DNA of 64,000 bases, from assembly GCA_018401555.1 (NCBI GenBank), contig JAGYKP010000086.1, forward strand, positions 42,049-106,048. The letters run 5' to 3'. This DNA comes from Halomonas sp. GTDB lineage: Bacteria > Pseudomonadota > Gammaproteobacteria > Pseudomonadales > Halomonadaceae. The position numbers and the translations under genes were made by a program. Positions within the stretch are counted from its first letter, which is position 1. The number at the start of each line of letters is the position of its first letter. The notes beneath the pieces are model-generated. The model saw nothing but the letters and a program-made list of their open reading frames with translations. It searched no databases and had not been told where the DNA came from. Shown one piece after another: positions 8,080-22,979 of the stretch.

Positions 8080-9576
8080 ATGTGCCCCTTGCGAATCGTC
8101 GTCGACCGCCTCGCCGACTGGCAGCCCTACTACCCCAGCGAAGACCTGATCAGCGCCGACGACTACCTTTCGCTGGACCGTCGCCACCGCAGCGGCGCCG
8201 AAAGCGAACGCACCACCCATGTGATCAACCTGTGCGGTGAGCTCGACTACCTGGGCACCGGCTGCTATGTCTCGCTGCTCGCCCAGGCCCGCGGCCAGCG
8301 GGTGCTGCCCACGGTGGAAACGCTCAACGAGCTGTCGCGCAAGGCGCTGATCGACCTGCAGCTGGACAGCCTGGCCCCGCTGCTCGGCGAACTGGCGCGG
8401 CGCGGCCGGCTTTCCGGCGATGCCGTGACCTCTGCGCGTGCTGTTCGGCGAGTGTCACGAACCCGGCCTCGAGCGCCTGGCACGCAAGCTCTTCGAACGC
8501 CTGCCCTGCCCCCTGCTGGAGGCCCGGCTAGTGCGCCGCCACGACCAGTGGCGACTTTCCCCGCCTCGGCCGCTGCGCCTGCGCGACCTGGCACCCGAGG
8601 AGCAGGACCTCTTCGCCAGCGCCCTCAACCGCCACTCCCGCAAGGTCTGGCGCACGCCCAAGGCGCGGCGCCGCTACCGCTTCGACCTGGCGATCCTGGT
8701 CGACCCCGGGGAAGCGCTGCCCCCCAGCAACCGAGGGGCGCTGAAGGCCTTCATCCGGGCCGGACGCCGGCTCGGCATTGATGTCTCGTTGATCACCCGC
8801 CGCGATGCCGGACGAATCGCCGAGTTCGACGCCCTGTTCATTCGCGAGACCACCGCACTGGACCACCACACCTATCGCATGGCGTGCCGTGCCGAACACG
8901 AGGGTCTGGTGGTGATCGACTCGCCACGGGATATCCTGCGCTGCACCAACAAGGTCTACCTGCACGCCCTGCTGCGCGCCCGCGGGGTACCGGCACCGGA
9001 GGGCGTACTGCTCAAGCGCGGCGACCGTCGCCCGCTGGCCGAACGCCTCGACGGCCTCGACTTTCCGCTGGTACTCAAGGTCCCCGACGGCTCGTTCTCC
9101 CGCGGCGTGGTCAAGGTCACCGACCTGGCCCAGCTGGAACACCAGGCGGGACGCCTGTTCCACGATTCGGCCCTGCTGCTGCTCCAGGAGTGGCTGCCCA
9201 CCGAATACGACTGGCGGATCGGCGTGCTCGATGGCCAGGTGCTCTTCGCCAGCCGCTACTACATGGCCCGCGGCCACTGGCAGATCTACGACCACTCCGC
9301 TGCCGGGGTGAGAGCGGCGGTTTCACCACCCATGCCCCGGAGGAGGTGCCTCCGGCGGTGATCAAGGCGGCCCTCAAGGCCTGTCGGCTGATCGGCGACG
9401 GCCTGTATGGCGTCGACCTCAAGCAGGCCGGTGACCGGGTGGTGGTGATCGAGGTCAACGACAACCCCAATATCGACGCCGGCATCGAGGACGTCGTGCT
9501 CGGTCGCGGCCTCTTTGATCGCATCATGGGAGTGTTCCTGTCACGCATGGAGGCGCGGGTGAGGTCAGGGAGCTGA
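8080..9576 (+). CDS. RimK-family ATP-grasp ligase with RLAN N-terminal domain (frameshifts near 8430 and 9310)
   Basis: VINLC..DYLGTGCYVSLLAQARG; LFIRETT; RCTNKVYL; LKVPDGSFSRGV; YGVDLKQ..VIEVNDNPNID. Confidence 0.88.
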
Positions 9577-9643
9577 CGCGGGGGCGTGGCTCGCGTATGC
9601 TGTCGTTTTCCTTGACAAGCCTTGTACAGAACATGGAGCCCCG

Positions 9644-10243
9644 ATGAGCGATCGCGATACCCGCCACAAGCAGTCGATGCAGAAACTCAAGGCCCGCGTC
9701 GACGAGAAGGTCGCCGCCGCCACCGAACAGCGTGGCCTGCTGCTGGTCTTCACCGGCAACGGCAAGGGCAAGACCACCGCCGCCTGGGGCACCGTGACCC
9801 GCGCCCTGGGTTACGGCTACCGGGTCGGGGTGATCCAGTTCATCAAGGGACAGTGGGAGTGCGGCGAGCGCGAACGGCTGGTCGAGGACCCCAATCTCGA
9901 GGTCGCCATCATGGGTACCGGCTTCACCTGGGAGACCCAGAACCGCGAGGCGGATACCGCCGCCTGCCGCGAGGTGTGGGCCGAGGCGGAGCGCATGCTG
10001 GCCGACCCCGAGGTCTACCTGGTGGTGCTCGACGAGATCACCTACATGCTCAAGTTCGGCTACCTCGACATCGCGACGGTCAGGCGCGCCATCGAGAACC
10101 GCCCCGCCGAGCAGAGCGTGATCGTCACCGGTCGCAACGCCCACCGCGAGCTGCTCGGCATGGCCGATACGGTCACCGAGATGCAGGAGGTGCGCCACGC
10201 CTTCAACGCCGGCCTTCAGGCGCGACGCGGCATCGACTACTGA
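9644..10243 (+). CDS. cobO: Cob(I)yrinic acid a,c-diamide adenosyltransferase
   Basis: VFTGNGKGKTTAAWG, IQFIKG, VVLDEI, VIVTGR, RRGIDY. Confidence 0.95.
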   Translation: MSDRDTRHKQSMQKLKARVDEKVAAATEQRGLLLVFTGNGKGKTTAAWGTVTRALGYGYRVGVIQFIKGQWECGERERLVEDPNLEVAIMGTGFTWETQNREADTAACREVWAEAERMLADPEVYLVVLDEITYMLKFGYLDIATVRRAIENRPAEQSVIVTGRNAHRELLGMADTVTEMQEVRHAFNAGLQARRGIDY

Positions 10244-10442
10244 AATCCAATCAAATCAATAACCTGTAAAGATCCTCAAGGGCGGCGTTGCCGCCTGGCA
10301 ACACCCTACCCTATTGAAATAAAAGAATTTTCTCAGGCCCTGCGAGTCCTGTAGCTGCACGGCGACGCTTCGGCCGCGACCCGGCGACAGCGTTGCCGAC
10401 CTTGATAACCCAACCCATTGACACAAAAGGAAAATAATAACC

Positions 10443-10458
10443 TGGCCCGATAATTGCT
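10443..10458 (+). promoter_or_regulatory. Putative sigma54 (-24/-12) promoter of the polysaccharide operon
   Basis: TGGCCCGATAATTGCT has the GG-N10-GC spacing, about 80 nt upstream of ugd, in an AT-rich intergenic region. Confidence 0.6.
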
Positions 10459-10536
10459 CCTGTGGATGGTCGCACGCCCCCGTAGACCTGCCCTCCCCGC
10501 GTCAGATGCCTGCGGGAGGGCCCTCAGCAAGGAGCA

Positions 10537-11892
10537 ATGACGACCATGCGGATTACCATCTTCGGTTCCGGTTACGTGGGCCTGGTTACCGGTGCCTGCC
10601 TGGCCGATGTGGGCCACGACGTCCTCTGCGTCGACGTCGATGCCGACAAGATCGCGCGCCTCAATGACGGCGAGGTGCCGATCTATGAGCCCGGCCTGGA
10701 GGGCCTGATCCGCCAGAACCGGGCGACCGGACGCCTGCGCTTCACCACCGATGCCGCCGAGGGCGTGGCCTTCGGCCTGCTGCAGTTCATCGCCGTGGGC
10801 ACGCCCGCCGACGAGGATGGCAGCGCGGATCTGCGCCATGTGCTCGAGGTGGCCGAGACCATCGGTCGCCACATGACCCAGTACCGCATCATCGTCGACA
10901 AGTCGACGGTGCCGGTGGGCACCGCCAGCAAGGTGGCCCGCGTGATCAGCGCCGAGCTCGGGCGACGCCGCCTGCAGCTCCCCTTCGATGTCTGCTCCAA
11001 CCCGGAATTCCTCAAGGAAGGTGCCGCGATCGAGGACTTCTCGCGGGGCTCGCGCATCGTGGTGGGGACCGATTCCGAGCGCGTGCGCAGCGCCATGCGC
11101 GAGTGCTACGGCCCCTATAACCGCAACCGCGACAAGCTGATGTTCATGGGCGTGCGCAGCGCCGAGCTGACCAAGTACGCCGCCAATGCCATGCTCGCCA
11201 CCAAGATCAGCTTCATCAACGAGATCGCCAATCTGGCCGAGCGGCTGGGTGCCGACGTGGAGGAGGTGCGCCACGGCATCGGCAGCGACCCGCGCATCGG
11301 CTATCACTTCATCTACCCCGGCTGCGGCTACGGCGGCTCCTGCTTCCCCAAGGACGTCAAGGCGCTGGCGCATACTGCCGAGCAGGTCGGCCACCCCGCC
11401 GAGATGATCGCCGCCGTGGAAGCGCATCAACGCGCGTCAGAAGAGCCGCCTGTTCGAGATGCTGTGCCAGGCCTTCAACGGCCAGCTGGCCGGCAGGACC
11501 ATCGCGCTGTGGGGCCTGGCCTTCAAGCCCAACACCGATGACATGCGCGAGGCCCCCAGTCGGGCGCTGATGGAGGCCCTCTGGGAGGCCGGTGCCCGGG
11601 TCCAGGCCTATGACCCCGAGGCCGCCGACGAGTGTCGCCGCCTGTATGGCGACCGTGACGACCTGGTGCTCGCCGGGTATCGCGACGAGACCTCGAGGGC
11701 GCCGATGCCCTGGTGATCTGCACCGAATGGAAGGCCTTCCGCACCGTCGACTTCGAGGCGCTGCGAGCGACCCTGCGCGAGCCGGTCGTGGTCGACGGCC
11801 GCAACCTCTTCCCGCCCGAGTCGGTCAAGGCCGCAGGCCTCGCCTACTACGCCATCGGCCGGGGTGACTCCGTACGTCCCGTACTCGCCTGA
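10537..11892 (+). CDS. ugd: UDP-glucose 6-dehydrogenase (Ugd-type; frameshifts near 11425 and 11690)
   Basis: [94 protein letters not shown]. Confidence 0.88.
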
Positions 11893-11904
11893 GGGGGAGT
11901 CGAG

Positions 11905-13863
11905 ATGTCGAACACACCTGACGATCGCTCCGTCGCCAGCAAGGTGACGGAGGTCACGACCTTCATCCTCGGGATCGCCCTGCTGATAGTGGTGGTCGAC
12001 GGCCTGCCGCTGGATGTCTTCTCTTCCGAGTCGAAGAGCTTCTTCTTCGCCGTCGGCGCCGTGGGCATCTGGCGCTACAGCTGGTGGCTGATCCAGGCCG
12101 TGCGCTCGGTGTGGTACAACCGCCGGATCTTCCCGCGCCTGCGGGCCGAGGCCGATGCCGCGGGGGAGCAGGCGCTCCCCCCGGAGCTCTATGTGCTGTG
12201 CACCTCCTTCCGCATCGAGCCCGAGGTCAGCTTCCGTGTCTACGACGCCCTGGTGCGCGAGGTTGCCGACTATGGCGTGCCCACCACTATCTTCGCCTCG
12301 CTGTCGGACCGCACCGACGTGGACGTCATCACCCACGTCATGGACGACAACGGCTGGCCGGAGAACATCGAGCTGCGCTACATGTTCCAGAAGGGTGACG
12401 GCAAGCGCTCGGCCATGGCCGAGGTGCTGCGCGCCATCTCGCGGCGCATGCCGGCGCCGGGCGCCCTGCTGGTCTCCATGGACGGCGACATCCGGCTCGA
12501 GCCGGGCACCCTGTCGCGCTCGCTGTCGTTCTTCAGCGTCCAGGAGGACCTGGGCGCCCTGACCACCAACAACAGCGCCATCGTCACGGGAGGCGACGCC
12601 ACCAAGGAGTGGTATGACATCCGCTACGCCCAGCGTCACCTGGTGATGAGCTCGATGTCGGTCTCACGACGCCTGCTGGTACTGACCGGCCGCTACAGTG
12701 CCTTCCGGGCCGAACTGGCGACCCAGCCCGACTTCATCGAGCTGGTGGAGAACGACCACGTCGACCACTGGCGCTTCGGCACCTTCAAGTTCCTCTCCGG
12801 TGACGACAAGTCGACCTGGTACTGGCTGCTGAAGAACGGCTGGCGGATGCTCTACATACCGGACGTGCACGTCTCGGGCTTCGAGGAACTGCCCGACCGC
12901 AGGCGGTTCTTCAAGTCGACCACCGACCTGATGCGCCGCTGGTACGGCAACATGCTGCGCACCAGCAACCGCGCCATCGCCCTGGGGCCACGGCCCATGG
13001 GTCTGTTCACCTGGTGGAGCCTGGTCGACCAGCGGCTCTCCATGTGGACCACCCTGATCGGCCCTACGGTGGCCCTCCTGGTGACCCTGTTCATCCGCCC
13101 CTCGTTCATCTTCGCCTATGTCCTGTGGATCCTTTTCACCCGCGGCATCGTGACGCTCATCCTGGCCTGGCAGCACGGCCGCTACAGCCTGCTCTGGGTG
13201 CCCTTGATCTACTACAACCAGGTGTGGGGTGCGTTGCTCAAGACCTATGTCAGCTTCCGCTTCAACCGCCAGAAGTGGTCGCGCCAGGGCATCTCCGCGG
13301 GCGAACCCGACGACCCGGCAGCCGTGAAGCGCCAGCGGCGCATGGGCCATGTGCTCCACGGCTTCGCCTACGGCGTGCTGCTCTACGTGCTGGTGCTGGC
13401 CACCGGGGTCCTGCAGCCACCGGACCGCACCTCGCTGGCCACCCTGACCGGCGGCAGCCCGGAGGCGCAGTCGCGGGTGGACGACCGCTGGCTGTCGCTG
13501 GCCATCGCCGATGCCCCGGAGGGGGGCAGCGTGCAACTGCCGGCCGGTGACTTCCATCTCGACGACGACCTGCTGGACACAATCGAGGGCCTCGACCGCC
13601 CCCGGGCCCGGCAGCTGCTGGGTGCCTCGGGGGACGCCACGCGCCTCTTCGTCACCTCCGAGCTGGCCACTCACCTGAGCGACAGCCATGGACGGCCCAT
13701 CGCCGAGGCGGCGGCCTGCCCGCAGCCTGACGGCTGCACCCTGACACTGAAGCACCACTCGATGCGCCTCAAGGGCCTGAGGATCCAGGTGGACTCCGGC
13801 CGTTCCGGCGACACCCTGGCGTCGGCCAACCAACAGAGCAAGGAGAAGGCAAAGGATGTCTGA
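11905..13863 (+). CDS. Alg8-like GT2 processive glycosyltransferase with C-terminal extension
   Basis: GAVGIWRYS, TSFRI, GKR, DGD, AQRH..SSM, HWRFGTFKFLSGDDKS, LMRRWYGN, DQRLSMWT, YYNQ, all collinear with Pseudomonas Alg8 as I recall it. Confidence 0.9.
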   Translation: MSNTPDDRSVASKVTEVTTFILGIALLIVVVDGLPLDVFSSESKSFFFAVGAVGIWRYSWWLIQAVRSVWYNRRIFPRLRAEADAAGEQALPPELYVLCTSFRIEPEVSFRVYDALVREVADYGVPTTIFASLSDRTDVDVITHVMDDNGWPENIELRYMFQKGDGKRSAMAEVLRAISRRMPAPGALLVSMDGDIRLEPGTLSRSLSFFSVQEDLGALTTNNSAIVTGGDATKEWYDIRYAQRHLVMSSMSVSRRLLVLTGRYSAFRAELATQPDFIELVENDHVDHWRFGTFKFLSGDDKSTWYWLLKNGWRMLYIPDVHVSGFEELPDRRRFFKSTTDLMRRWYGNMLRTSNRAIALGPRPMGLFTWWSLVDQRLSMWTTLIGPTVALLVTLFIRPSFIFAYVLWILFTRGIVTLILAWQHGRYSLLWVPLIYYNQVWGALLKTYVSFRFNRQKWSRQGISAGEPDDPAAVKRQRRMGHVLHGFAYGVLLYVLVLATGVLQPPDRTSLATLTGGSPEAQSRVDDRWLSLAIADAPEGGSVQLPAGDFHLDDDLLDTIEGLDRPRARQLLGASGDATRLFVTSELATHLSDSHGRPIAEAAACPQPDGCTLTLKHHSMRLKGLRIQVDSGRSGDTLASANQQSKEKAKDV

Positions 13864-15373
13864 TCATCATCCCGACATGAACGGCATCGACCGTAACGAG
13901 CCGAGCCTGGGTCCGGTCACCCACCGAGGCGAGGGACGCCATCACGAGAGAATCCACCACGAGCGGCGCGACGAGCGCCGCTTCATCCGCGTCTCGCCCC
14001 CCTTCCGGGTCCGCCTCGAGGATGGCCAGGAGCTCCCCGGTGCCGATGTCTCGGTGGGCGGCTTCGCGGTGCGCACCTCACGGCCGCTGCGCCCTGGCGA
14101 GCGCCTGTCGGCCTCGCTGCTGCTGACCGCCGGGGCCACCGAACTGATCGTGCCGGTGCAGGCCGAGTGCCGCCATGCCACCGCCGAGCAGGGCGGGCGA
14201 CACTACGTCAACGGCTTCGAGATCACGGATATCGAACCACCCCACCGCGAACTGCTGCGCCAGGTGGTTCGCAGCTGCCTGACCGGACGCCACCCCAGCA
14301 TCGAGTCGCTGATGGAGGGCGAGGATCCGCAGACCCCGCGCAGGCGCAAGGCGGGTCACTCCTCGCCCCTGCCGCCGTCGCGCCCGCCCAAGCCGCGGGG
14401 ACGCTACCTGCTGCTGTTCACCGCCATCGGCGTCCTCGCGATCGCGGCGGCGGCCACGGCCTACCGCAACTTCATGCTGATCGAGCCGAGCTTCGCCGCG
14501 GTCACCGCCCCACGGATCGACATTCGCGCCCCGGGCCCCGGCATCCTCGAGGCCCACGACCTGCAGGCCGGCGACCGGGTCGCGCGCGACCAGGAGCTGA
14601 CCAGCATCGCCAACAGCGACCTGGAGTCGGAGCTGATCCTCTCCCGCGCCTCACTGAACTACAACGAGCAGCTCATCACGAACCTGCGAGAGCACCTGGA
14701 GTCGGCCGGCGGCGGTCAGGTCAGCATCGCCAGCTCCGCGCGTCCCGAGAGCGGCGATGCCATGAGCTTCGAGACGGTGTCGCCGGAGATCGCCCAGGCA
14801 CGCATCGAGCAGTTCGAGACGGCACGCGACCTGGAGAGCTCGCGCATCACCGCGCTGGAGGCACGCCAGGCCAGCAACGACATCTACAGCCCGTGCGAGT
14901 GCCTGGTGGCCTGGGCCCTGAGCAGCGCCGACGGCACCTATGTCAACGAGAGCGAGCGGATCATGACCCTGATCCGCACCGGCGAGGACGACGTCATGGT
15001 CGAGGCGCTGGTCCACATGGATGACATCGACCGCATCGAGCCCAACCAGACGGCCTACGTCTCGCTGCCCAACGCCTCGACCCCGATCCGCGCCCGGGTA
15101 CGCAACGTGGCGCTCGACGTCGAGCGCCAGCCCCGTGCCGGCTTCCCCAGCTGGGTCCGCCAGCAGCAGAACGTGGCAAGTGTGCTGCTGGTGCCCGAGA
15201 AGAGCCTGCCGCCGGAAAGCGTCGGCAAGCCGGCAGACGTGCGCTTCACCGAGGCCCCGCTGCTGGGTGCCACCGCCGAGTGGGTCTGGCAGGGCATGCG
15301 GGCGGTGATCCAGTTCGGCGAGCGCGTCTACCGTGCCGCCACCCAGGAGGACACCTCCTCCGAGGCGGGGTGA
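13856..15373 (+). CDS. Alg44-like protein (PilZ + TM + membrane-fusion domain)
   Basis: PilZ motifs RRFIR and DVSVGG; single TM; IRAPGPG...SPCEC HlyD-like periplasmic part. Confidence 0.85.
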   Translation: MSDHHPDMNGIDRNEPSLGPVTHRGEGRHHERIHHERRDERRFIRVSPPFRVRLEDGQELPGADVSVGGFAVRTSRPLRPGERLSASLLLTAGATELIVPVQAECRHATAEQGGRHYVNGFEITDIEPPHRELLRQVVRSCLTGRHPSIESLMEGEDPQTPRRRKAGHSSPLPPSRPPKPRGRYLLLFTAIGVLAIAAAATAYRNFMLIEPSFAAVTAPRIDIRAPGPGILEAHDLQAGDRVARDQELTSIANSDLESELILSRASLNYNEQLITNLREHLESAGGGQVSIASSARPESGDAMSFETVSPEIAQARIEQFETARDLESSRITALEARQASNDIYSPCECLVAWALSSADGTYVNESERIMTLIRTGEDDVMVEALVHMDDIDRIEPNQTAYVSLPNASTPIRARVRNVALDVERQPRAGFPSWVRQQQNVASVLLVPEKSLPPESVGKPADVRFTEAPLLGATAEWVWQGMRAVIQFGERVYRAATQEDTSSEAG

Positions 15374-15431
15374 TGCCCGGCCACCGACGCCGCGATGCCT
15401 CGGCACCGCGGCCCTTCGTCAAGGAGACTCC

Positions 15432-16317
15432 ATGAGCATGATATCACCCGATTTCCGGCGTCTGACACTGCTCCTCACGGCCCTGCTTTCGGGCATCGCC
15501 TCGGCAGGCACCTCTGCGCAGGAAGACGAGGAGCCGACCCTCTCCCATCCGCGGGTCGAACCCCGTTCGGCGCGCTATCCGCTGGCGGCCACCCCGCAGC
15601 CGGACCTCTCCGCCGAGGATGCCCGGGCAGGAGTGCGCCAGGGCTTCGGCACCCGGCGTGACTGGGGCGTCGAGGACAATGTCGAGCTCCTCGACGCCGA
15701 CGCCACGGGCCTCGGCGAGCCGGGCCTGCGCGTCCACTATCCCGAGGGCACTTCCTCCCCCGGAGACACGGAGCAGGGGGGCCGGCTTCTACGCCGCCCC
15801 GGCAGGACCTGGCCGGGGCCGAACGGGCCTGCCTCACCTACCAGGTGCGTTTCGAGCCGGGATTCGACTTCGTCAAGGGCGGCAAGCTGCCGGGCCTCTA
15901 CGGCGGCGATGCCCCCAGCGGCGGCGACGAGGTCGACGGCGAGAGCGGCTTCTCGATGCGCTTCATGTGGCGCGAGGCCGGCCAGGGGAGCTCTACGAGT
16001 ACGTGGCCGGCCAGGACGAGGAGTTCGGCGCCTCCGTGGGTCGCGGGCTGTGGAGTTTCCCCAGCGGGGAGTGGGTCACCATCGAACAGGAGCTGGTGCT
16101 CAACACGCCGGGGGAGGCCGACGGGCTGGCCCGGGTGTGGATCGACGGAGTCCCGGTGCTCGAGCAGGGCGAGATCGTCTACCGCACCACCGATGAGGTG
16201 ACCATCGACGGCCTGATGTTCTCGACCTTCTTCGGCGGCAGCGGCAAGGAGTGGCGCACCCCGTCCGACCAGCATGCCGACTTCGCCGCATTCCGCTTCT
16301 ACGCCCCCTCTCCCTGA
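15432..16317 (+). CDS. Secreted PL14-like polysaccharide lyase (frameshifts near 15780-15810 and 15985)
   Basis: Signal peptide; LRVHYPEG, FDFVKGGKLPGLYGG, FSMRFMWR, LNTPGEADG..RVWIDG, FSTFFGG. Confidence 0.8.
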
Positions 16318-16354
16318 GCGGGGCCGCCCCATCTCACAAGGAGTGACACCCACC

Positions 16355-17608
16355 ATGCCCCAGGCCCGTTCCGGACTGCCCCACCGCCCTCTCGCCGCCG
16401 CCCTGACCCTGCTGCTCGCCGGGCTGGCGAGCGGCGCGGGCGCCCAGGAGATGGAGATCCTCACCATCGAGGAGCGCGAGGCACTCGACCTCTCGGACTA
16501 TCGCGTCACCGCCCCCGACGCCGGCTACTTCGATGTGGCGGCCCGCATGGAAGAGCTCGCCGACACCGACAACGCCATCCTGCTCCAGGAGGTCGACCAG
16601 CTCGCTCAGGGCCCGAGCTGCCAGCAGATGATGGCGTACGAGCCGATCACCACCCAGCTGCGGGTTCCCGGCTACTACCCCAACCCCGAGGCATGGGAGC
16701 TCGCCTCGGAGCCGCTGTTCCAGTTCGAGGACAACGTCTCGATGCTGGCCGGCAGCTTCGTCGCCAGCGGCGATGAGTACTATGCCGAGTGCCTGGTGCG
16801 CTTCCTCGACCACTGGGCGCAGCAGGAGGCCCTGACCGACTTCTACTACGACTCCGTCGAGCCCCAGGCATGGTTCGCCACCGAGTCGATGATCTTTGCC
16901 GCGGCCATGGCCTACGCCAGCGTGCGCCCCTACGTCGAAGGCATGCAGGAGGAGCGTGAGCGCGTCGAGGCGTGGCTCAACGGCCTGGCCCACCAGCACG
17001 CCGATATCCCCGGTGGCGAGGGCAACAGCTGCTGCAACAACCACTTCTACCGCCGGGCGCTCTACGCCAGCATGGTCGGCGTGCTGACCGAGGACAACGC
17101 GCTGTTCCGCTTCGGGGTGAGCGCCATCCATGCCGCCCTTCACGACATGACCGAGGAGGGCGCCTTCCCGCTGGAGGTCTCCCGAGGACGGCGCGCCACC
17201 CACTACCAGAACTATGGCCTGCTCTACCTGATCACCAACATGCAGGTCATCGCCCGGCAGGGCTACGACATCTTCGAGCTCGAGGTCGACGGCCGCACCA
17301 TCCATGACGCCATCGACTTCCTGTTCGCGATCCTCGACGACCCGGCCGCCCTGGGCGACTACGCCCCTCTCGAGCAGTACACCGGATTTCTCAAGGATCC
17401 CCAGTACTTCACCTGGATGGAGATCTACCTGAAGCGCTTCGATGACCCCCGCGTCGAGGACTTCATCCGCCGGGTACGCCCCCTCTACAACCGCAGTGCC
17501 GGCGGCTACATGACCCTGTACTTCATGGATCCCGACGCCCAGCACCATGTCGTGCTCGACGAGGAGAAGCAGGAGACCACGGCTTTCAAGGGACTGGGGC
17601 AGGAGTGA
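16355..17608 (+). CDS. PL5-type alginate/polyuronate lyase
   Basis: Signal peptide; SCCNNHFY, HYQNY, RQGYDIF...DGRTIH resemble Sphingomonas A1-III/AlgL. Confidence 0.85.
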   Translation: MPQARSGLPHRPLAAALTLLLAGLASGAGAQEMEILTIEEREALDLSDYRVTAPDAGYFDVAARMEELADTDNAILLQEVDQLAQGPSCQQMMAYEPITTQLRVPGYYPNPEAWELASEPLFQFEDNVSMLAGSFVASGDEYYAECLVRFLDHWAQQEALTDFYYDSVEPQAWFATESMIFAAAMAYASVRPYVEGMQEERERVEAWLNGLAHQHADIPGGEGNSCCNNHFYRRALYASMVGVLTEDNALFRFGVSAIHAALHDMTEEGAFPLEVSRGRRATHYQNYGLLYLITNMQVIARQGYDIFELEVDGRTIHDAIDFLFAILDDPAALGDYAPLEQYTGFLKDPQYFTWMEIYLKRFDDPRVEDFIRRVRPLYNRSAGGYMTLYFMDPDAQHHVVLDEEKQETTAFKGLGQE

Positions 17609-17657
17609 TACCCCGATATCCGCCGTCATCCGAGAATCACCACGAGGCCCGAACACC

Positions 17658-20369
17658 ATGCAAATCACCCCGACCGCTACCCCCGTCCTGCCACAGGCTC
17701 GAGGACTTCGCCTGATGGCCTCGGCCAGCCTGCTGGTGCTGCTCGCCGGATGCGCCGTCACCGACACGACTCCTCAGGCCATCGCCCCCCTGCCCGAGCG
17801 CTACCAGGCCTGGTTCGAGGACGGCCAGCCGCGCAACTTCGAGTGGATGCACAAGCAGACCGTCGAGAAGGCCGACGAGGCGGCCGCCGCAGGCAACCCC
17901 CGCGAGGCGATCCGGCTGCTCACCGGCCTGGCCGATCAGGGCTTTCCCCAGGCGCACTATGAACTGGGCAAGCTCCATGACCAGGGCGAGGCGACGGAGC
18001 GCGACCCAGGACGGGCGGCCGAGCACTATGCCCGAGCGGTGCGCACCCCCTCCTACATTCGTGGCCATGCCGCTCTCAACCTGGCGAAGCTCTATCGCGA
18101 GGGCGGCGCCGTCGAGCGCAATGACCTGCTCGCCTACCACCTGCTGCGCCTGGCCATCGAAGAGGAGGTGGAGCGTGACGAGCGGGTGATGCTGGCCGAG
18201 CTGCTGCGAGACGGCGGTGACGGGGTGTCGGCCGACCCCGAACAGGCGGCCAGGCTCTATGCCATCGAGGCCGAGCAGGGCAAGGAGGAGGCGCTCAGGG
18301 CGCTCGCCGAGGCCCATGCCCCCGGCGGCTGGCTGGACGAAGCCCGACCTCGCCATGGACTACGCCCAACGCTACGCCGCGGCGCTGCGCAAGCGCGCCG
18401 CGGCCGGCGAGACCGATGCCATGCGGCGCCTGGCGGGACTGCATGCCCCCGACGGCCTGCTCGGCGACCAGCCTGAACAGCGCCTGCACTGGCTACGCCA
18501 GGCGGCCGAGGCCGGCGACGAGGATGCACTGGGCAATGCCGGTAACGCTCTGCTAGAGGCCGGGGAGACGCGAGAGGGGGTCGCAATGCTCGAGGAGGCG
18601 GCCAAGCATGGCGATGTCGACGCCATGACCAAGCTGGGCGGATTGCTGGGCGACCCCGAGCAGGAACCAACCCGGCCGGCGGCCGGCGAAGCGCTGGCTG
18701 GAGCAAGCCGTTGAAGCCGGCAACGTCGACGCCATGGAGATCCTCGGGGCCACGTTGGTGGCCGAGGCCCGTCAGCGGCAGGAGGCGACGGGCGGGCTGG
18801 GGGCCGACGCCGATGTCGCCTCCCCCGACCTCGGCGAACCGGCCCTCTTCCCCCCACCCGCGGCCCAACGTGGCATCGCCCTGCTCGAACGCGCCGCCGA
18901 GCAGGACCACGCCCTGGCGATGGCTCGCCTGGGCGACCTCTACCTCGAGGGCGAGCTGGTGCCAAGCCAACCCTATCTGGCCATCGACTACCTGGAGCGC
19001 GCCCACGAGCTGGGTCACCCCTGGGCCACCCAGCAGCTGGGCGCCGCCTACCTCGAGGGCCGCGGCGTTCCGCAGGACGGAGGCCGGGCGGAAGGCTTGC
19101 TTCGCGAGGCGGGCAAACAGGGCCAGGCGGGGGCCCTGCGCCTGCTCGGCGAGGCCCACCTCCAGGAGCAGGGGCCCCTGCCCTTCCACCCCAGCCGCGC
19201 CGAGTCGCTGCTGGAGGAGGCCCTAGAGGCCGGCGATGACACCGCCATGGCGGTACTCGGTGAGGCCTACCTGAAGGGGCCGCTGCCGGAGGATAGCGGC
19301 CGCGGCCTGGCCCTGCTCGAGCGCGCGGCGCGCAACGGCGACGCCAATGCCATGCTGGTGCTGGGTCGCGCCTACCGCGACGGCGACGGGGTCGGCCAGG
19401 ACCTCGACGAGGCCACACACTGGCTGACGCGGGCCCGTGAGGCCGGGAACACGGCCGCCGATGAGGTCATGGTCGGGGTCAACCGCAAGAAGGGGGCTGG
19501 CGGCGATATCAACGCCCTGATCGAGGCCGCCGAGCAGGGACACCCAGGGGCCATGGCCGACCTGGGACGCGCCTTCCAGGAAGGCCGGGGCGTACAGGCC
19601 GACCCCGGGCGGCCCGCCGCTGGCTCGAGCAGGCCGCGAATGCCGGCCACACCGGGCGCGCGCCGAGATCGGCGAGATGCTGCTCGACAGCGAGCCGCAG
19701 CGCGCCCTGTCTCTGCTGCAGTCCGCCGCCGGCGCCGGCCACGAGGGGGCGCGCCTGACCCTCGGCCAGGCCTACCTGAAGGGTGACATCGTCGAGGCCG
19801 ATGCCGAGCGGGGCATCGAATACCTGCGCCCCCTCGCCGAAGCAGGCAATCCCCATGCGGCCCGGGAGCTAGGCGTGGCCTATCAGGAGGGTGTGGGGGT
19901 GACATCCGATCCCGAGCAGGCCCGGGAGTGGCTGGAACGCGCCGCCGAGAGCGGTGATCTCGCCTCGCGGGCCAACCTGGGCCGCAGCCTGCTGCGCGGC
20001 GAGGCGGGTATGCCCGTGGACACCGAGCGCGGCCAGGAGCTGCTGCAGAAGGCCGCGGCCCAGGGTCACCCCGGGGCCATGGCCACCCTGGGCCGGGAGT
20101 ACATCCGCGGCGAGAACCTCGAGCAGGATGTCCGCCAGGGGGCCGACTACCTGCTGAAGGCGGCCGAGCAGGGCCACTCCAGCGCCCGCCTGGCGCTGGC
20201 CAAGGCCTACCTGGCGGCCAACGGCCTGGAGAATGCCAGCCGCGAGCAGGCCCTGGTGTGGCTCGATGGCGTCATGGAAGGCGACAGCAGCATGGCGCTG
20301 CAGACCCTCCACGAGCTGCTCTCCGACGAGAGTGCCGCCGAGGCGCTGGAGGTGGCGGCGGCGGAGTGA
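17658..20369 (+). CDS. SEL1-like repeat lipoprotein (AlgK-like, about 900 aa; frameshifts near 18345, 18680, 19610)
   Basis: Lipobox LLVLLAGC; many AxxxLGxxYxxGxGVxxD...A..WL..AA.xG repeats. Confidence 0.85.
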
Positions 20370-20392
20370 TCCACGAGTGTCCCCCGCTACGC

Positions 20393-20420
20393 AAAGGCCG
20401 GCCCCGTGGGGACCGGCCTG
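20393..20420. terminator. Hairpin terminator between converging SEL1 gene and purA
   Basis: AAAGGCCGGCCCC-GT-GGGGACCGGCCT. Confidence 0.6.
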
Positions 20421-20448
20421 CCTGCTTCAGGGACTGCTGCTTTCGAGG

Positions 20449-22979
<2,531 letters not shown>

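Follow-up and report, generated by a model that had tools for sequence, protein, structure and literature searches.

The DNA analysed here, a 64-kb stretch of a Halomonas genome (64,000 nucleotides (nt), hereafter the window), carries six genes between cobO and purA, all on the plus strand. They encode a UDP-glucose 6-dehydrogenase (Ugd), a processive glycosyltransferase of family 2 (GT2) resembling Alg8, a PilZ/membrane-fusion protein resembling Alg44, two polysaccharide lyases of families PL14 and PL5, and a SEL1-repeat lipoprotein. On balance we favour the reading that this is a synthase operon derived from Alg8/Alg44 and fed by UDP-glucuronate (UDP-GlcA) instead of GDP-mannuronate (GDP-ManA), with glucuronan as its most likely product, the donor and the product being deduced from gene linkage. 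A preliminary description had seen a six-gene operon between cobO and purA; the families it assigned were confirmed by Pfam and NCBIfam matches, but it had missed frameshifts in ugd and in the PL14 and SEL1 genes. The source genome comprises 3.25 Mb in 106 contigs and is 77% complete, the window lying on contig C10, and the public sequencing run closest to the window is a salt-lake metagenome. The features of the locus are as follows.

9644-10243: cobO, upstream flank (NF004637, 272 bits)
10287..10302, plus strand: palindrome GTTGCC-N4-GGCAAC, candidate enhancer-binding-protein site, judged from its position relative to the sigma-54 element
10443..10458, plus strand: sigma-54-type -24/-12 promoter element TGGCCCGATAATTGCT, a match to TGGCNCGNNNNTTGCW
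10546..11892, plus strand: ugd, predicted UDP-glucose 6-dehydrogenase (Pfam, NCBIfam and PDB matches; alternative ATG at 10537)
11905..13863, plus strand: Alg8-like processive GT2 synthase, 652 aa (40% identity to canonical Alg8)
13856..15373, plus strand: Alg44-like PilZ/membrane-fusion protein, 505 aa (Pfam and profile-profile match)
15432..16317, plus strand: PL14-family polysaccharide lyase with signal peptide (Pfam PF21294)
16355..17608, plus strand: PL5-family (alginate-lyase fold) polyuronate lyase with signal peptide (Pfam PF05426, E 1.5e-36)
17658..20369, plus strand: SEL1-repeat lipoprotein, about 900 aa, lipobox L-A-G-C (Pfam Sel1 repeats)
20520-21812, minus strand: purA, downstream flank

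The genes are tightly packed, the start of the PilZ gene overlapping the end of the synthase gene by 8 nt. The locus of Halomonas shengliensis is colinear with the window over 15.5 kb at 90% nucleotide identity; its six genes are intact (448, 652, 505, 295, 417 and 907 aa) and their spacing ranges from an 8-nt overlap to a 58-nt gap. A scan of positions 9500-21000 against Rfam gave no credible RNA element.

As assembled, the frame of ugd is broken twice (an extra base at 11420 and a missing base near 11689/11690), that of the PL14 gene three times (near 15780, 15807 and 15984) and that of the SEL1 gene at 18342, 18688, 19602 and 19653. Taken at face value, several frameshifts in three of the six genes could mean that the cluster is a decaying group of pseudogenes, an explanation that we find hardly credible, as indels of the same type also break neighbouring genes. 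A rimK-like gene, purA and hisZ are interrupted as well, and single-base indels relative to H. shengliensis occur at 8431, 9311, 20668, 22693 and elsewhere. We aligned contigs of four public runs to the region. Those of run X1, the probable source sample, differ from the window at 0-1 positions in pieces of up to 2.4 kb (99.9-100% identity) and restore the frame at 11420, 15984, 18688, 20401 and 20668; contigs of the other three runs do so at 11690, 15780, 15807, 19602 and 19653. Because the run contigs carry the frame-restoring base at the exact positions and the orthologues are intact, the frameshifts in the window are assembly errors and the operon is intact in nature. Consensus indel errors seem to affect the whole assembly and probably have a share in the completeness estimate of 77%. 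For protein analyses, intact orthologues were used in place of the broken genes.

The protein encoded by the first gene of the window matches the Pfam families UDPG_MGDP_dh_N (E 1.6e-62) and the central domain (E 1.3e-38), and its orthologue carries all three UDPG_MGDP_dh domains. The best NCBIfam models are UDP-glucose 6-dehydrogenases, the TuaD model scoring 340 bits over the N-terminal 290 residues. Against solved structures, the N-terminal part of the window protein scores 416 bits to the Burkholderia UDP-glucose dehydrogenase (UGD) 2y0e, which together with 2y0c we take to be BceC, versus 190 bits to the Pseudomonas aeruginosa GDP-mannose dehydrogenase (GMD) 1mfz; for the intact orthologue the scores are 563 bits (about 62% identity) versus 230 bits, and AlgD of a canonical alg operon (L043), used as a control, reaches 898 bits to 1mfz. 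All four Ugd peptide signatures listed in the preliminary description are present, although one of them, of 11 letters, lies in a different frame from the rest of the gene, and the catalytic cysteine motif reads GGSCFPKD. The phylogeny that the description had proposed as a check separates the two types cleanly: when 36 dehydrogenases are placed in a tree, a clade of AlgD-type proteins stands apart from the Ugd clade, to which the operon-linked ones belong, with support of 100 on both sides. The predicted product of the first gene is thus a UDP-glucose dehydrogenase and not an AlgD-type GDP-mannose dehydrogenase.

The ugd genes of the operons have evolved along lines of their own. The operon Ugds of Halomonadaceae group with a second Ugd of the window's own genome that is encoded outside the operon (74% identity), while those of Alphaproteobacteria form a separate clade, have UGD 4a7p as best PDB match (489 bits) and are encoded at another place in the operon. 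Recruitment or replacement of ugd may thus have happened repeatedly with no loss of its linkage to the synthase, as expected if the synthase depends on UDP-GlcA. In Caenispirillum salinarum (L097/L100) the synthase nests within those of Halomonadaceae (65% identity) and the ugd is of the alphaproteobacterial type (44% identity), in the alphaproteobacterial operon position. The two groupings disagree, so that ugd has a history other than that of the rest of the cassette, and a horizontal transfer combined with gene replacement is the probable cause.

The second gene encodes a protein with a Pfam Glyco_tranf_2_3 domain of the GT2 class (E 1.3e-27) that is 93% identical to the H. shengliensis synthase. 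As sequence searches of the PDB with the synthase or the PilZ protein returned nothing at E <= 0.01, homology to Alg8 and Alg44 was established against a canonical Pseudomonas operon taken from genomes. Searching 401 genomes of the same order with the synthase gave orthologues within the family at 65-80% identity, then a gap, then a block at 34-43%; we fetched 20 neighbourhoods of this block and 16 of them proved to be canonical alginate operons. The reference operon (L043/L061) has AlgK and AlgG passing the NCBI equivalog cut-offs as well as AlgL, and its first gene is the AlgD control used above. Over about 450 residues the window synthase has 40% identity to canonical Alg8, and 98 residues are the same throughout the two synthase clades, among them D138, D193-G-D195, D300-D301-K302 and L342..R345-W346. 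A further 19 positions are fixed differently in the ugd-linked and AlgD-linked groups. One of these, E328, aligns with H323 of Alg8, whose replacement by alanine lowers alginate production 6.9-fold (PMC4436075). Of 87 synthases placed in a tree, the 16 that are linked to AlgD group in a single clade (support of 100 in the Shimodaira-Hasegawa-like approximate likelihood ratio test) and all ugd-linked ones lie on the other side (93), so that a single change of the AlgD label is needed. The predicted synthase is, then, a true Alg8 homologue of a distinct lineage, and its AlphaFold model has the fold of membrane-embedded processive synthases.

It also carries an extra C-terminal domain of ~150 aa (about residues 503-652) that is absent from Alg8 and from some orthologues. 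Two invariant cysteines suggest that this domain is periplasmic. Folded alone (503-652), it gave a model with a predicted local distance difference test (pLDDT) score of 82, a confident fold for which a Foldseek search at E <= 0.001 came back empty; VIA-align reached a Z of 3.9 at best, and its list contained scattered beta-helix proteins, AlgE4 (2pyg) at Z 2.3 among them, none of them significant. The domain might conceivably be a beta-helix N-cap. More distant Alg8-like synthases in the 34-43% block (L053, on G051:C3, and L058-L060) have no adjacent dehydrogenase, and that of L053 is paired only with a 511-aa HlyD-type protein in which Pfam finds no PilZ domain.

The third gene encodes an N-terminal PilZ domain (residues 36-138), a membrane segment and a periplasmic HlyD-like membrane-fusion domain (HlyD_3, residues 343-426). 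Single-sequence searches with this protein found no Alg44 match. Comparison by hhalign of a profile of 20 orthologues with 12 canonical Alg44 proteins gave a probability of 100% (E 1.7e-40, 356 columns); the alignment runs from the PilZ domain through the membrane segment into the membrane-fusion domain and takes in the SPCDC motif. Judged by this profile match, the predicted protein is a true Alg44 homologue. The cyclic di-GMP (c-di-GMP) binding motifs RxxxR (HERRDERR) and DxSxxG are kept in all orthologues examined, and from these motifs the synthase would probably be gated by c-di-GMP. Mutation of the RxxxR arginines abolishes alginate synthesis (PMC4436075).

We scanned one genome per species for this type of synthase and obtained 79 named loci. 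The complete set of six genes was recovered in 66 of them, from two proteobacterial classes, which bears out the synteny anticipated for ugd-alg8-alg44-PL14-PL5-SEL1. The order ugd-GT-PilZ-PL14-PL5-SEL1 is found in 51 loci; nine others show it with duplications of lyase or SEL1 genes, and GT-PilZ-ugd-PL14-PL5-SEL1 is the arrangement of six. The ugd-first order is that of Halomonadaceae (Halomonas, Billgrantia, Salinicola, Modicisalibacter, Onishia, Franzmannia, Litchfieldella and Vreelandella) and the other that of Alphaproteobacteria (Caenispirillum, Thalassobaculum, Kiloniellaceae and Dongiaceae). In all, the cassette extends to at least eight named genera of Halomonadaceae and four alphaproteobacterial families. 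Its occurrence is patchy, the synthase being found in four of 11 sampled genomes of the family and absent from the only other sampled genome of the same genus, and its flanking genes differ between taxa. None of the 79 loci contains an AlgD-type dehydrogenase or homologues of AlgK, AlgE, AlgG, AlgX, AlgI, AlgJ, AlgF or AlgA. In canonical loci, Alg8 and Alg44 are accompanied by a dehydrogenase of AlgD type (53-100% identity to P. aeruginosa-like AlgD) and by most of AlgK/E/G/X/I/J/F, in some cases also by AlgL or AlgA. There are two types of locus, and they do not mix.

One genome of the Pseudomonas family (G321) has two separate alginate-type clusters, a standard one with the order algD-alg8-alg44-algK-algE-algG-algX-algL (L050) and a divergent one with algA between algD and alg8 (L051).

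The association with ugd could also mean that UDP-GlcA is converted to a different building block before polymerisation, for instance to UDP-galacturonate by 4-epimerisation or to a pentose by decarboxylation, with the converting enzyme encoded elsewhere in the genome. Ugd is indeed the entry to several nucleotide sugars, and some loci lack a ugd beside the synthase, indicating that precursor genes can sit elsewhere. We consider this improbable, as no epimerase or decarboxylase gene was found in the 79 loci, whose flanks vary by taxon, and neither PL5 nor PL14 is a pectate-lyase family.

The genes of this type in Halomonas have been treated in the literature as alginate or 'mannuronan synthase' genes (PMC4523562, PMC11890756), and the question arises whether the locus is an ordinary alginate (mannuronan) system whose GDP-ManA comes from a dehydrogenase encoded elsewhere or from a Ugd of relaxed specificity. 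We searched the window's own genome by tblastn with twelve canonical Pseudomonas Alg proteins. The only matches were the synthase (40%), the PL5 lyase (24%) and paralogues of the Ugd family; AlgK, AlgE, AlgG, AlgX, AlgI, AlgJ, AlgF and AlgA had no match in the locus or in the rest of this 77%-complete genome, as the preliminary description had stated for the locus with respect to algA, algG, algX/I/J/F and algE. It had also named an algD elsewhere in the genome as a finding that would speak against its proposal. GMD was found neither in the own genome, at its 77% completeness, nor in four 100%-complete carriers of the family Halomonadaceae, where the best AlgD-like matches have 36-39% identity and are Ugds; the same search recovered the Pseudomonas control. 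AlgG (NF038177) is likewise absent from the four complete carriers and was found in the Pseudomonas control. Since GMD, AlgG and the acetylation genes are missing, the predicted operon lacks what defines an alginate operon and keeps the polymerase core.

An alginate system would agree with the annotation of the orthologues as Alg8 or mannuronan synthase and with the genome surveys cited above, with the activity of the nearest characterised lyases on alginate, and with the GDP-mannose synthesis genes, which are present in all four complete carriers. We nevertheless think it very improbable, given the absence of GMD and AlgG from those carriers, the Ugd clade with its support of 100, the position of the synthase outside the AlgD-linked Alg8 clade and the failure of the searches to find AlgK/E/G/X/I/J/F. 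The product is, with good confidence, something other than alginate. Taken together, the identity of the dehydrogenase, its linkage to the synthase, the separate synthase clade and the missing GMD and AlgG support the idea put forward at the outset, that an Alg8/Alg44 machine has been repurposed for a non-alginate polyuronate.

The two lyases are compatible with such a product. PF21294 is recognised on two frame fragments of the PL14 gene (104 and 78 bits), and the intact orthologue scores 110 bits to the mollusc alginate lyase AkAly30 (5gmt) versus 33 bits to chlorovirus vAL-1. The PL5 protein matches Sphingomonas A1-III at 158 bits, Smlt1473 at 95 bits and AlgL at 55-66 bits, with the catalytic motifs NNH and YQNY aligned. 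The families named in the preliminary description therefore stand, whereas its argument from the lyases is weak, the relatives that it cited, vAL-1 and Smlt1473, not being the closest ones, which are AkAly30 and A1-III. Glucuronan-lyase activity has been reported within PL14 subfamilies (PMC11890756). The presence of PL14 and PL5 enzymes, both families being active on 4-linked polyuronates, fits a putative polyuronate product and is equally compatible with glucuronate and mannuronate. A second PL14-PL5 pair or a duplicated PL5 gene is seen in Billgrantia (L072, L076, L077 and L081) and Modicisalibacter (L089, L125 and L137); where a second pair is present in some genera it lies downstream of the SEL1 gene, and other genera have a duplicated PL5 gene together with two SEL1 genes, of ~600 aa and ~900 aa.

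Sel1 repeats were found by Pfam in all three fragments of the last gene. The match of the protein to the AlgK model is weak (24-47 bits, with a cut-off of 700). In the consensus of 30 orthologues, the sequence is Sel1-like from about residue 100 to the C-terminus, leaving no room for a beta-barrel, and the lipobox cysteine is kept in at least 90%. We propose that this lipoprotein may serve as an AlgK-like periplasmic scaffold.

Several observations weigh against a glucuronan synthase of this kind. The donor and the product are read from gene linkage only, and a minority of the 79 loci have no ugd adjoining the synthase. By sequence, the nearest characterised relatives of both lyases are alginate (poly-M) lyases and not glucuronan lyases. 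No gene for an outer-membrane porin was found in the operon of the 79 loci or in the flanks searched, those of one alphaproteobacterial locus containing only a peptide ABC transporter, a GntR regulator and a peptidase; among the four complete carriers, one has a strong match to the AlgE-family porin model PF13372 and another a marginal one, and tblastn found no AlgE in the 77%-complete own genome. No ugd-type synthase was found in the plasmid collection, where the 14 matching records are all Rhizobium chromids or roseobacter plasmids and five loci were examined; Sinorhizobium meliloti, a known producer of glucuronan, had no match among the plasmid records, and no link to known producers emerged. 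The arrangement of a GT2 synthase beside ugd is also that of hasA-hasB and cps3S-cps3D, and the AlphaFold (AF2) model of the synthase (pLDDT 84) finds hyaluronan synthases as the nearest solved folds (E 3e-15), with BcsA and chitin synthases also among the matches, Alg8 itself having no solved structure.

The five plasmid and chromid loci that we examined are alginate-like, of GMD/AlgG or AlgA/AlgI type, and not ugd-type. The Rhizobium chromid loci (L141, L142 and L145, from R. grahamii, R. gallicum and relatives) have AlgD-, Alg8-, Alg44- and AlgG-like genes, to which that of R. gallicum adds an AlgA-like gene; the region is unannotated in the Rhizobium records. The roseobacter plasmid loci (L143 and L144, from Loktanella and Salipiger) have AlgD-, Alg8-, AlgA- and AlgI/J/X-like genes, and a parallel beta-helix gene is annotated at the AlgG position.

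The gene arrangement and the structural matches noted above bear on the main rival to glucuronan, a heteropolymer in which glucuronate (GlcA) is combined with glucose (Glc) or N-acetylglucosamine (GlcNAc), as in cellubiuronic acid or hyaluronan. Such a system would need only ugd in the operon because the second donor could come from housekeeping pools. Hyaluronan synthase with hasB, and pneumococcal Cps3S with cps3D, are single-domain GT2 enzymes encoded beside ugd, and both make alternating heteropolymers. The match of the PL5 protein to Smlt1473 points the same way, as this PL5 enzyme cleaves hyaluronan in addition to poly-GlcA and poly-ManA. However, the closest sequence relatives by far are the Alg8 proteins, which make homopolymers and share with the window synthase 40% identity and the 98 invariant residues, and the match to hyaluronan synthase amounts to only 12-14% identity, as expected for any Alg8-like protein. 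In addition, PL14 and PL5 are mainly families of homopolyuronate lyases (PMC11890756). We therefore judge a heteropolymer to be unlikely, while taking it more seriously than any other alternative, and favour a homopolymer of glucuronate. As the sugar that Alg8 joins into a beta-1,4 homopolymer is the C2 epimer of GlcA, this would most likely be beta-1,4-glucuronan.

Upstream of ugd, the sigma-54 consensus TGGCNCGNNNNTTGCW has its sole match in the window at 10443-10458, on the correct strand and about 90 nt from the gene, the chance expectation being 0.12 matches in 64 kb. Nine species all keep its GG and GC dinucleotides, in intergenic regions that are otherwise about 50% identical. In 29 of 76 loci, those of the Halomonas, Billgrantia and Onishia group, TGGC-N7-TTGC precedes ugd at a distance of 60-160 nt; the background frequency is 0.02 per 460 nt. 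The palindrome GTTGCC-N4-GGCAAC lies about 150 bp upstream of the promoter, and its half-site GGCAACA is invariant in nine Halomonas species; from its position it may be an enhancer-binding-protein site. A scan for sigma-70 promoters found none, and terminator-like hits were at chance level only. The operon thus seems to be under dual control, with sigma-54 acting on transcription and c-di-GMP on the enzyme, as far as can be told from the promoter element and the PilZ motifs. In the presumed 5' untranslated region, a GC-rich hairpin (GCCCTCCCCGC ... GCGGGAGGGC, at 10490-10521) lies just before the ribosome-binding site of ugd, and related species have at this position a different sequence that is also capable of pairing. 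Contigs of a metatranscriptome run (X16), 93-97% identical to the window, cover parts of ugd, the synthase gene, the PilZ gene and the PL14 gene at a depth of 4-9, compared with 300-900 for purA; because DNA carry-over is possible, we did not count this coverage as expression.

From these elements a mechanism can be proposed. Ugd would oxidise UDP-glucose to UDP-GlcA, which the Alg8-like membrane synthase would polymerise while translocating the growing chain, most likely an unmodified beta-1,4-polyglucuronate. Binding of c-di-GMP to the PilZ domain of the Alg44-like partner would permit polymerisation, and the membrane-fusion domain of this partner, together with the long SEL1 lipoprotein, could guide the chain across the periplasm. 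The secreted PL14 and PL5 lyases might trim the polymer or clear stray chains, and in Halomonas and Billgrantia transcription would start from the sigma-54-type promoter. The donor sugar, the linkage, the homopolymer nature of the product, its activation by c-di-GMP and the export route are all predictions of this model.

The alginate system of Pseudomonas and Azotobacter shares with the operon a homologous GT2 synthase (40% identity, with DxD, DDK and LxxRW motifs), a homologous PilZ/membrane-fusion co-polymerase with RxxxR and DxSxxG, a lipoprotein of the tetratricopeptide repeat (TPR)/SEL1 type, a PL5 lyase and, in first place, a gene for a nucleotide-sugar 6-dehydrogenase. It differs in that the dehydrogenase of our operon is a Ugd and not a GMD, that no AlgG, AlgX/I/J/F, AlgE or AlgA was found here, and that here a PL14 lyase, a lipoprotein of twice the length of AlgK and the 150-aa C-terminal domain are added to a synthase of a separate clade. 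The hasA-hasB-hasC and cps3D-cps3S systems likewise place a single membrane-embedded processive GT2 synthase beside ugd, but hyaluronan synthase has only 12-14% sequence identity to the synthase here, and these systems have no PilZ/membrane-fusion partner, lyases or lipoprotein, make heteropolymers and are not known to be gated by c-di-GMP. With the systems for cellulose (BcsA/B/C), poly-N-acetylglucosamine (PgaABCD) and Pel, the operon has in common the general plan of a GT2 synthase in the inner membrane with a c-di-GMP receptor, here a predicted one, and a TPR-like scaffold in the periplasm, here a putative one; the TPR protein of those systems carries or pairs with an outer-membrane beta-barrel, whereas here none is linked and the SEL1 repeats run to the C-terminus. 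The glucuronan of S. meliloti M5N1CS and Peteryoungia rosettiformans represents the candidate class of product, with the difference that it is O-acetylated and that our operon has no acetyltransferase.

Known producers of glucuronan also make a glucuronan lyase, and the genes for glucuronan biosynthesis were stated in 2023 to be still unknown (PMC10180729). A literature search, with subscription journals outside its coverage, found no description of a glucuronan synthase or of a ugd-linked Alg8/Alg44 system. What is new here is best described as a UDP-GlcA-fed variant of the synthase-dependent systems of the Alg8/Alg44 type. More tentatively, and with the balance of our judgement still slightly against so full a claim, it may be the first genetically defined bacterial glucuronan synthase system, one that would have switched donor from GDP-ManA to UDP-GlcA, be gated by c-di-GMP and, in Halomonas, by sigma-54, be widespread among halophilic Halomonadaceae as well as in Alphaproteobacteria from marine or saline habitats, and operate without a dedicated AlgE-type porin. 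As no porin gene was found linked to it, one may ask by what route a synthase-dependent polymer here passes through the outer membrane.

If our reading is right, an annotation error runs through dozens of Halomonadaceae genomes and through ocean metatranscriptome surveys, in which these genes are read as 'mannuronan synthase' or alginate genes (PMC11890756). On a practical matter, polyglucuronates are sought as gelling and bioactive polymers, and a six-gene cassette in culturable, industrially used Halomonas would make their production and engineering directly testable. Furthermore, the two synthase clades would amount to a natural experiment in donor specificity, in which related Alg8-type synthases, separated by 19 clade-fixed differences, apparently differ in their donor, GDP-ManA for one clade and UDP-GlcA for the second.

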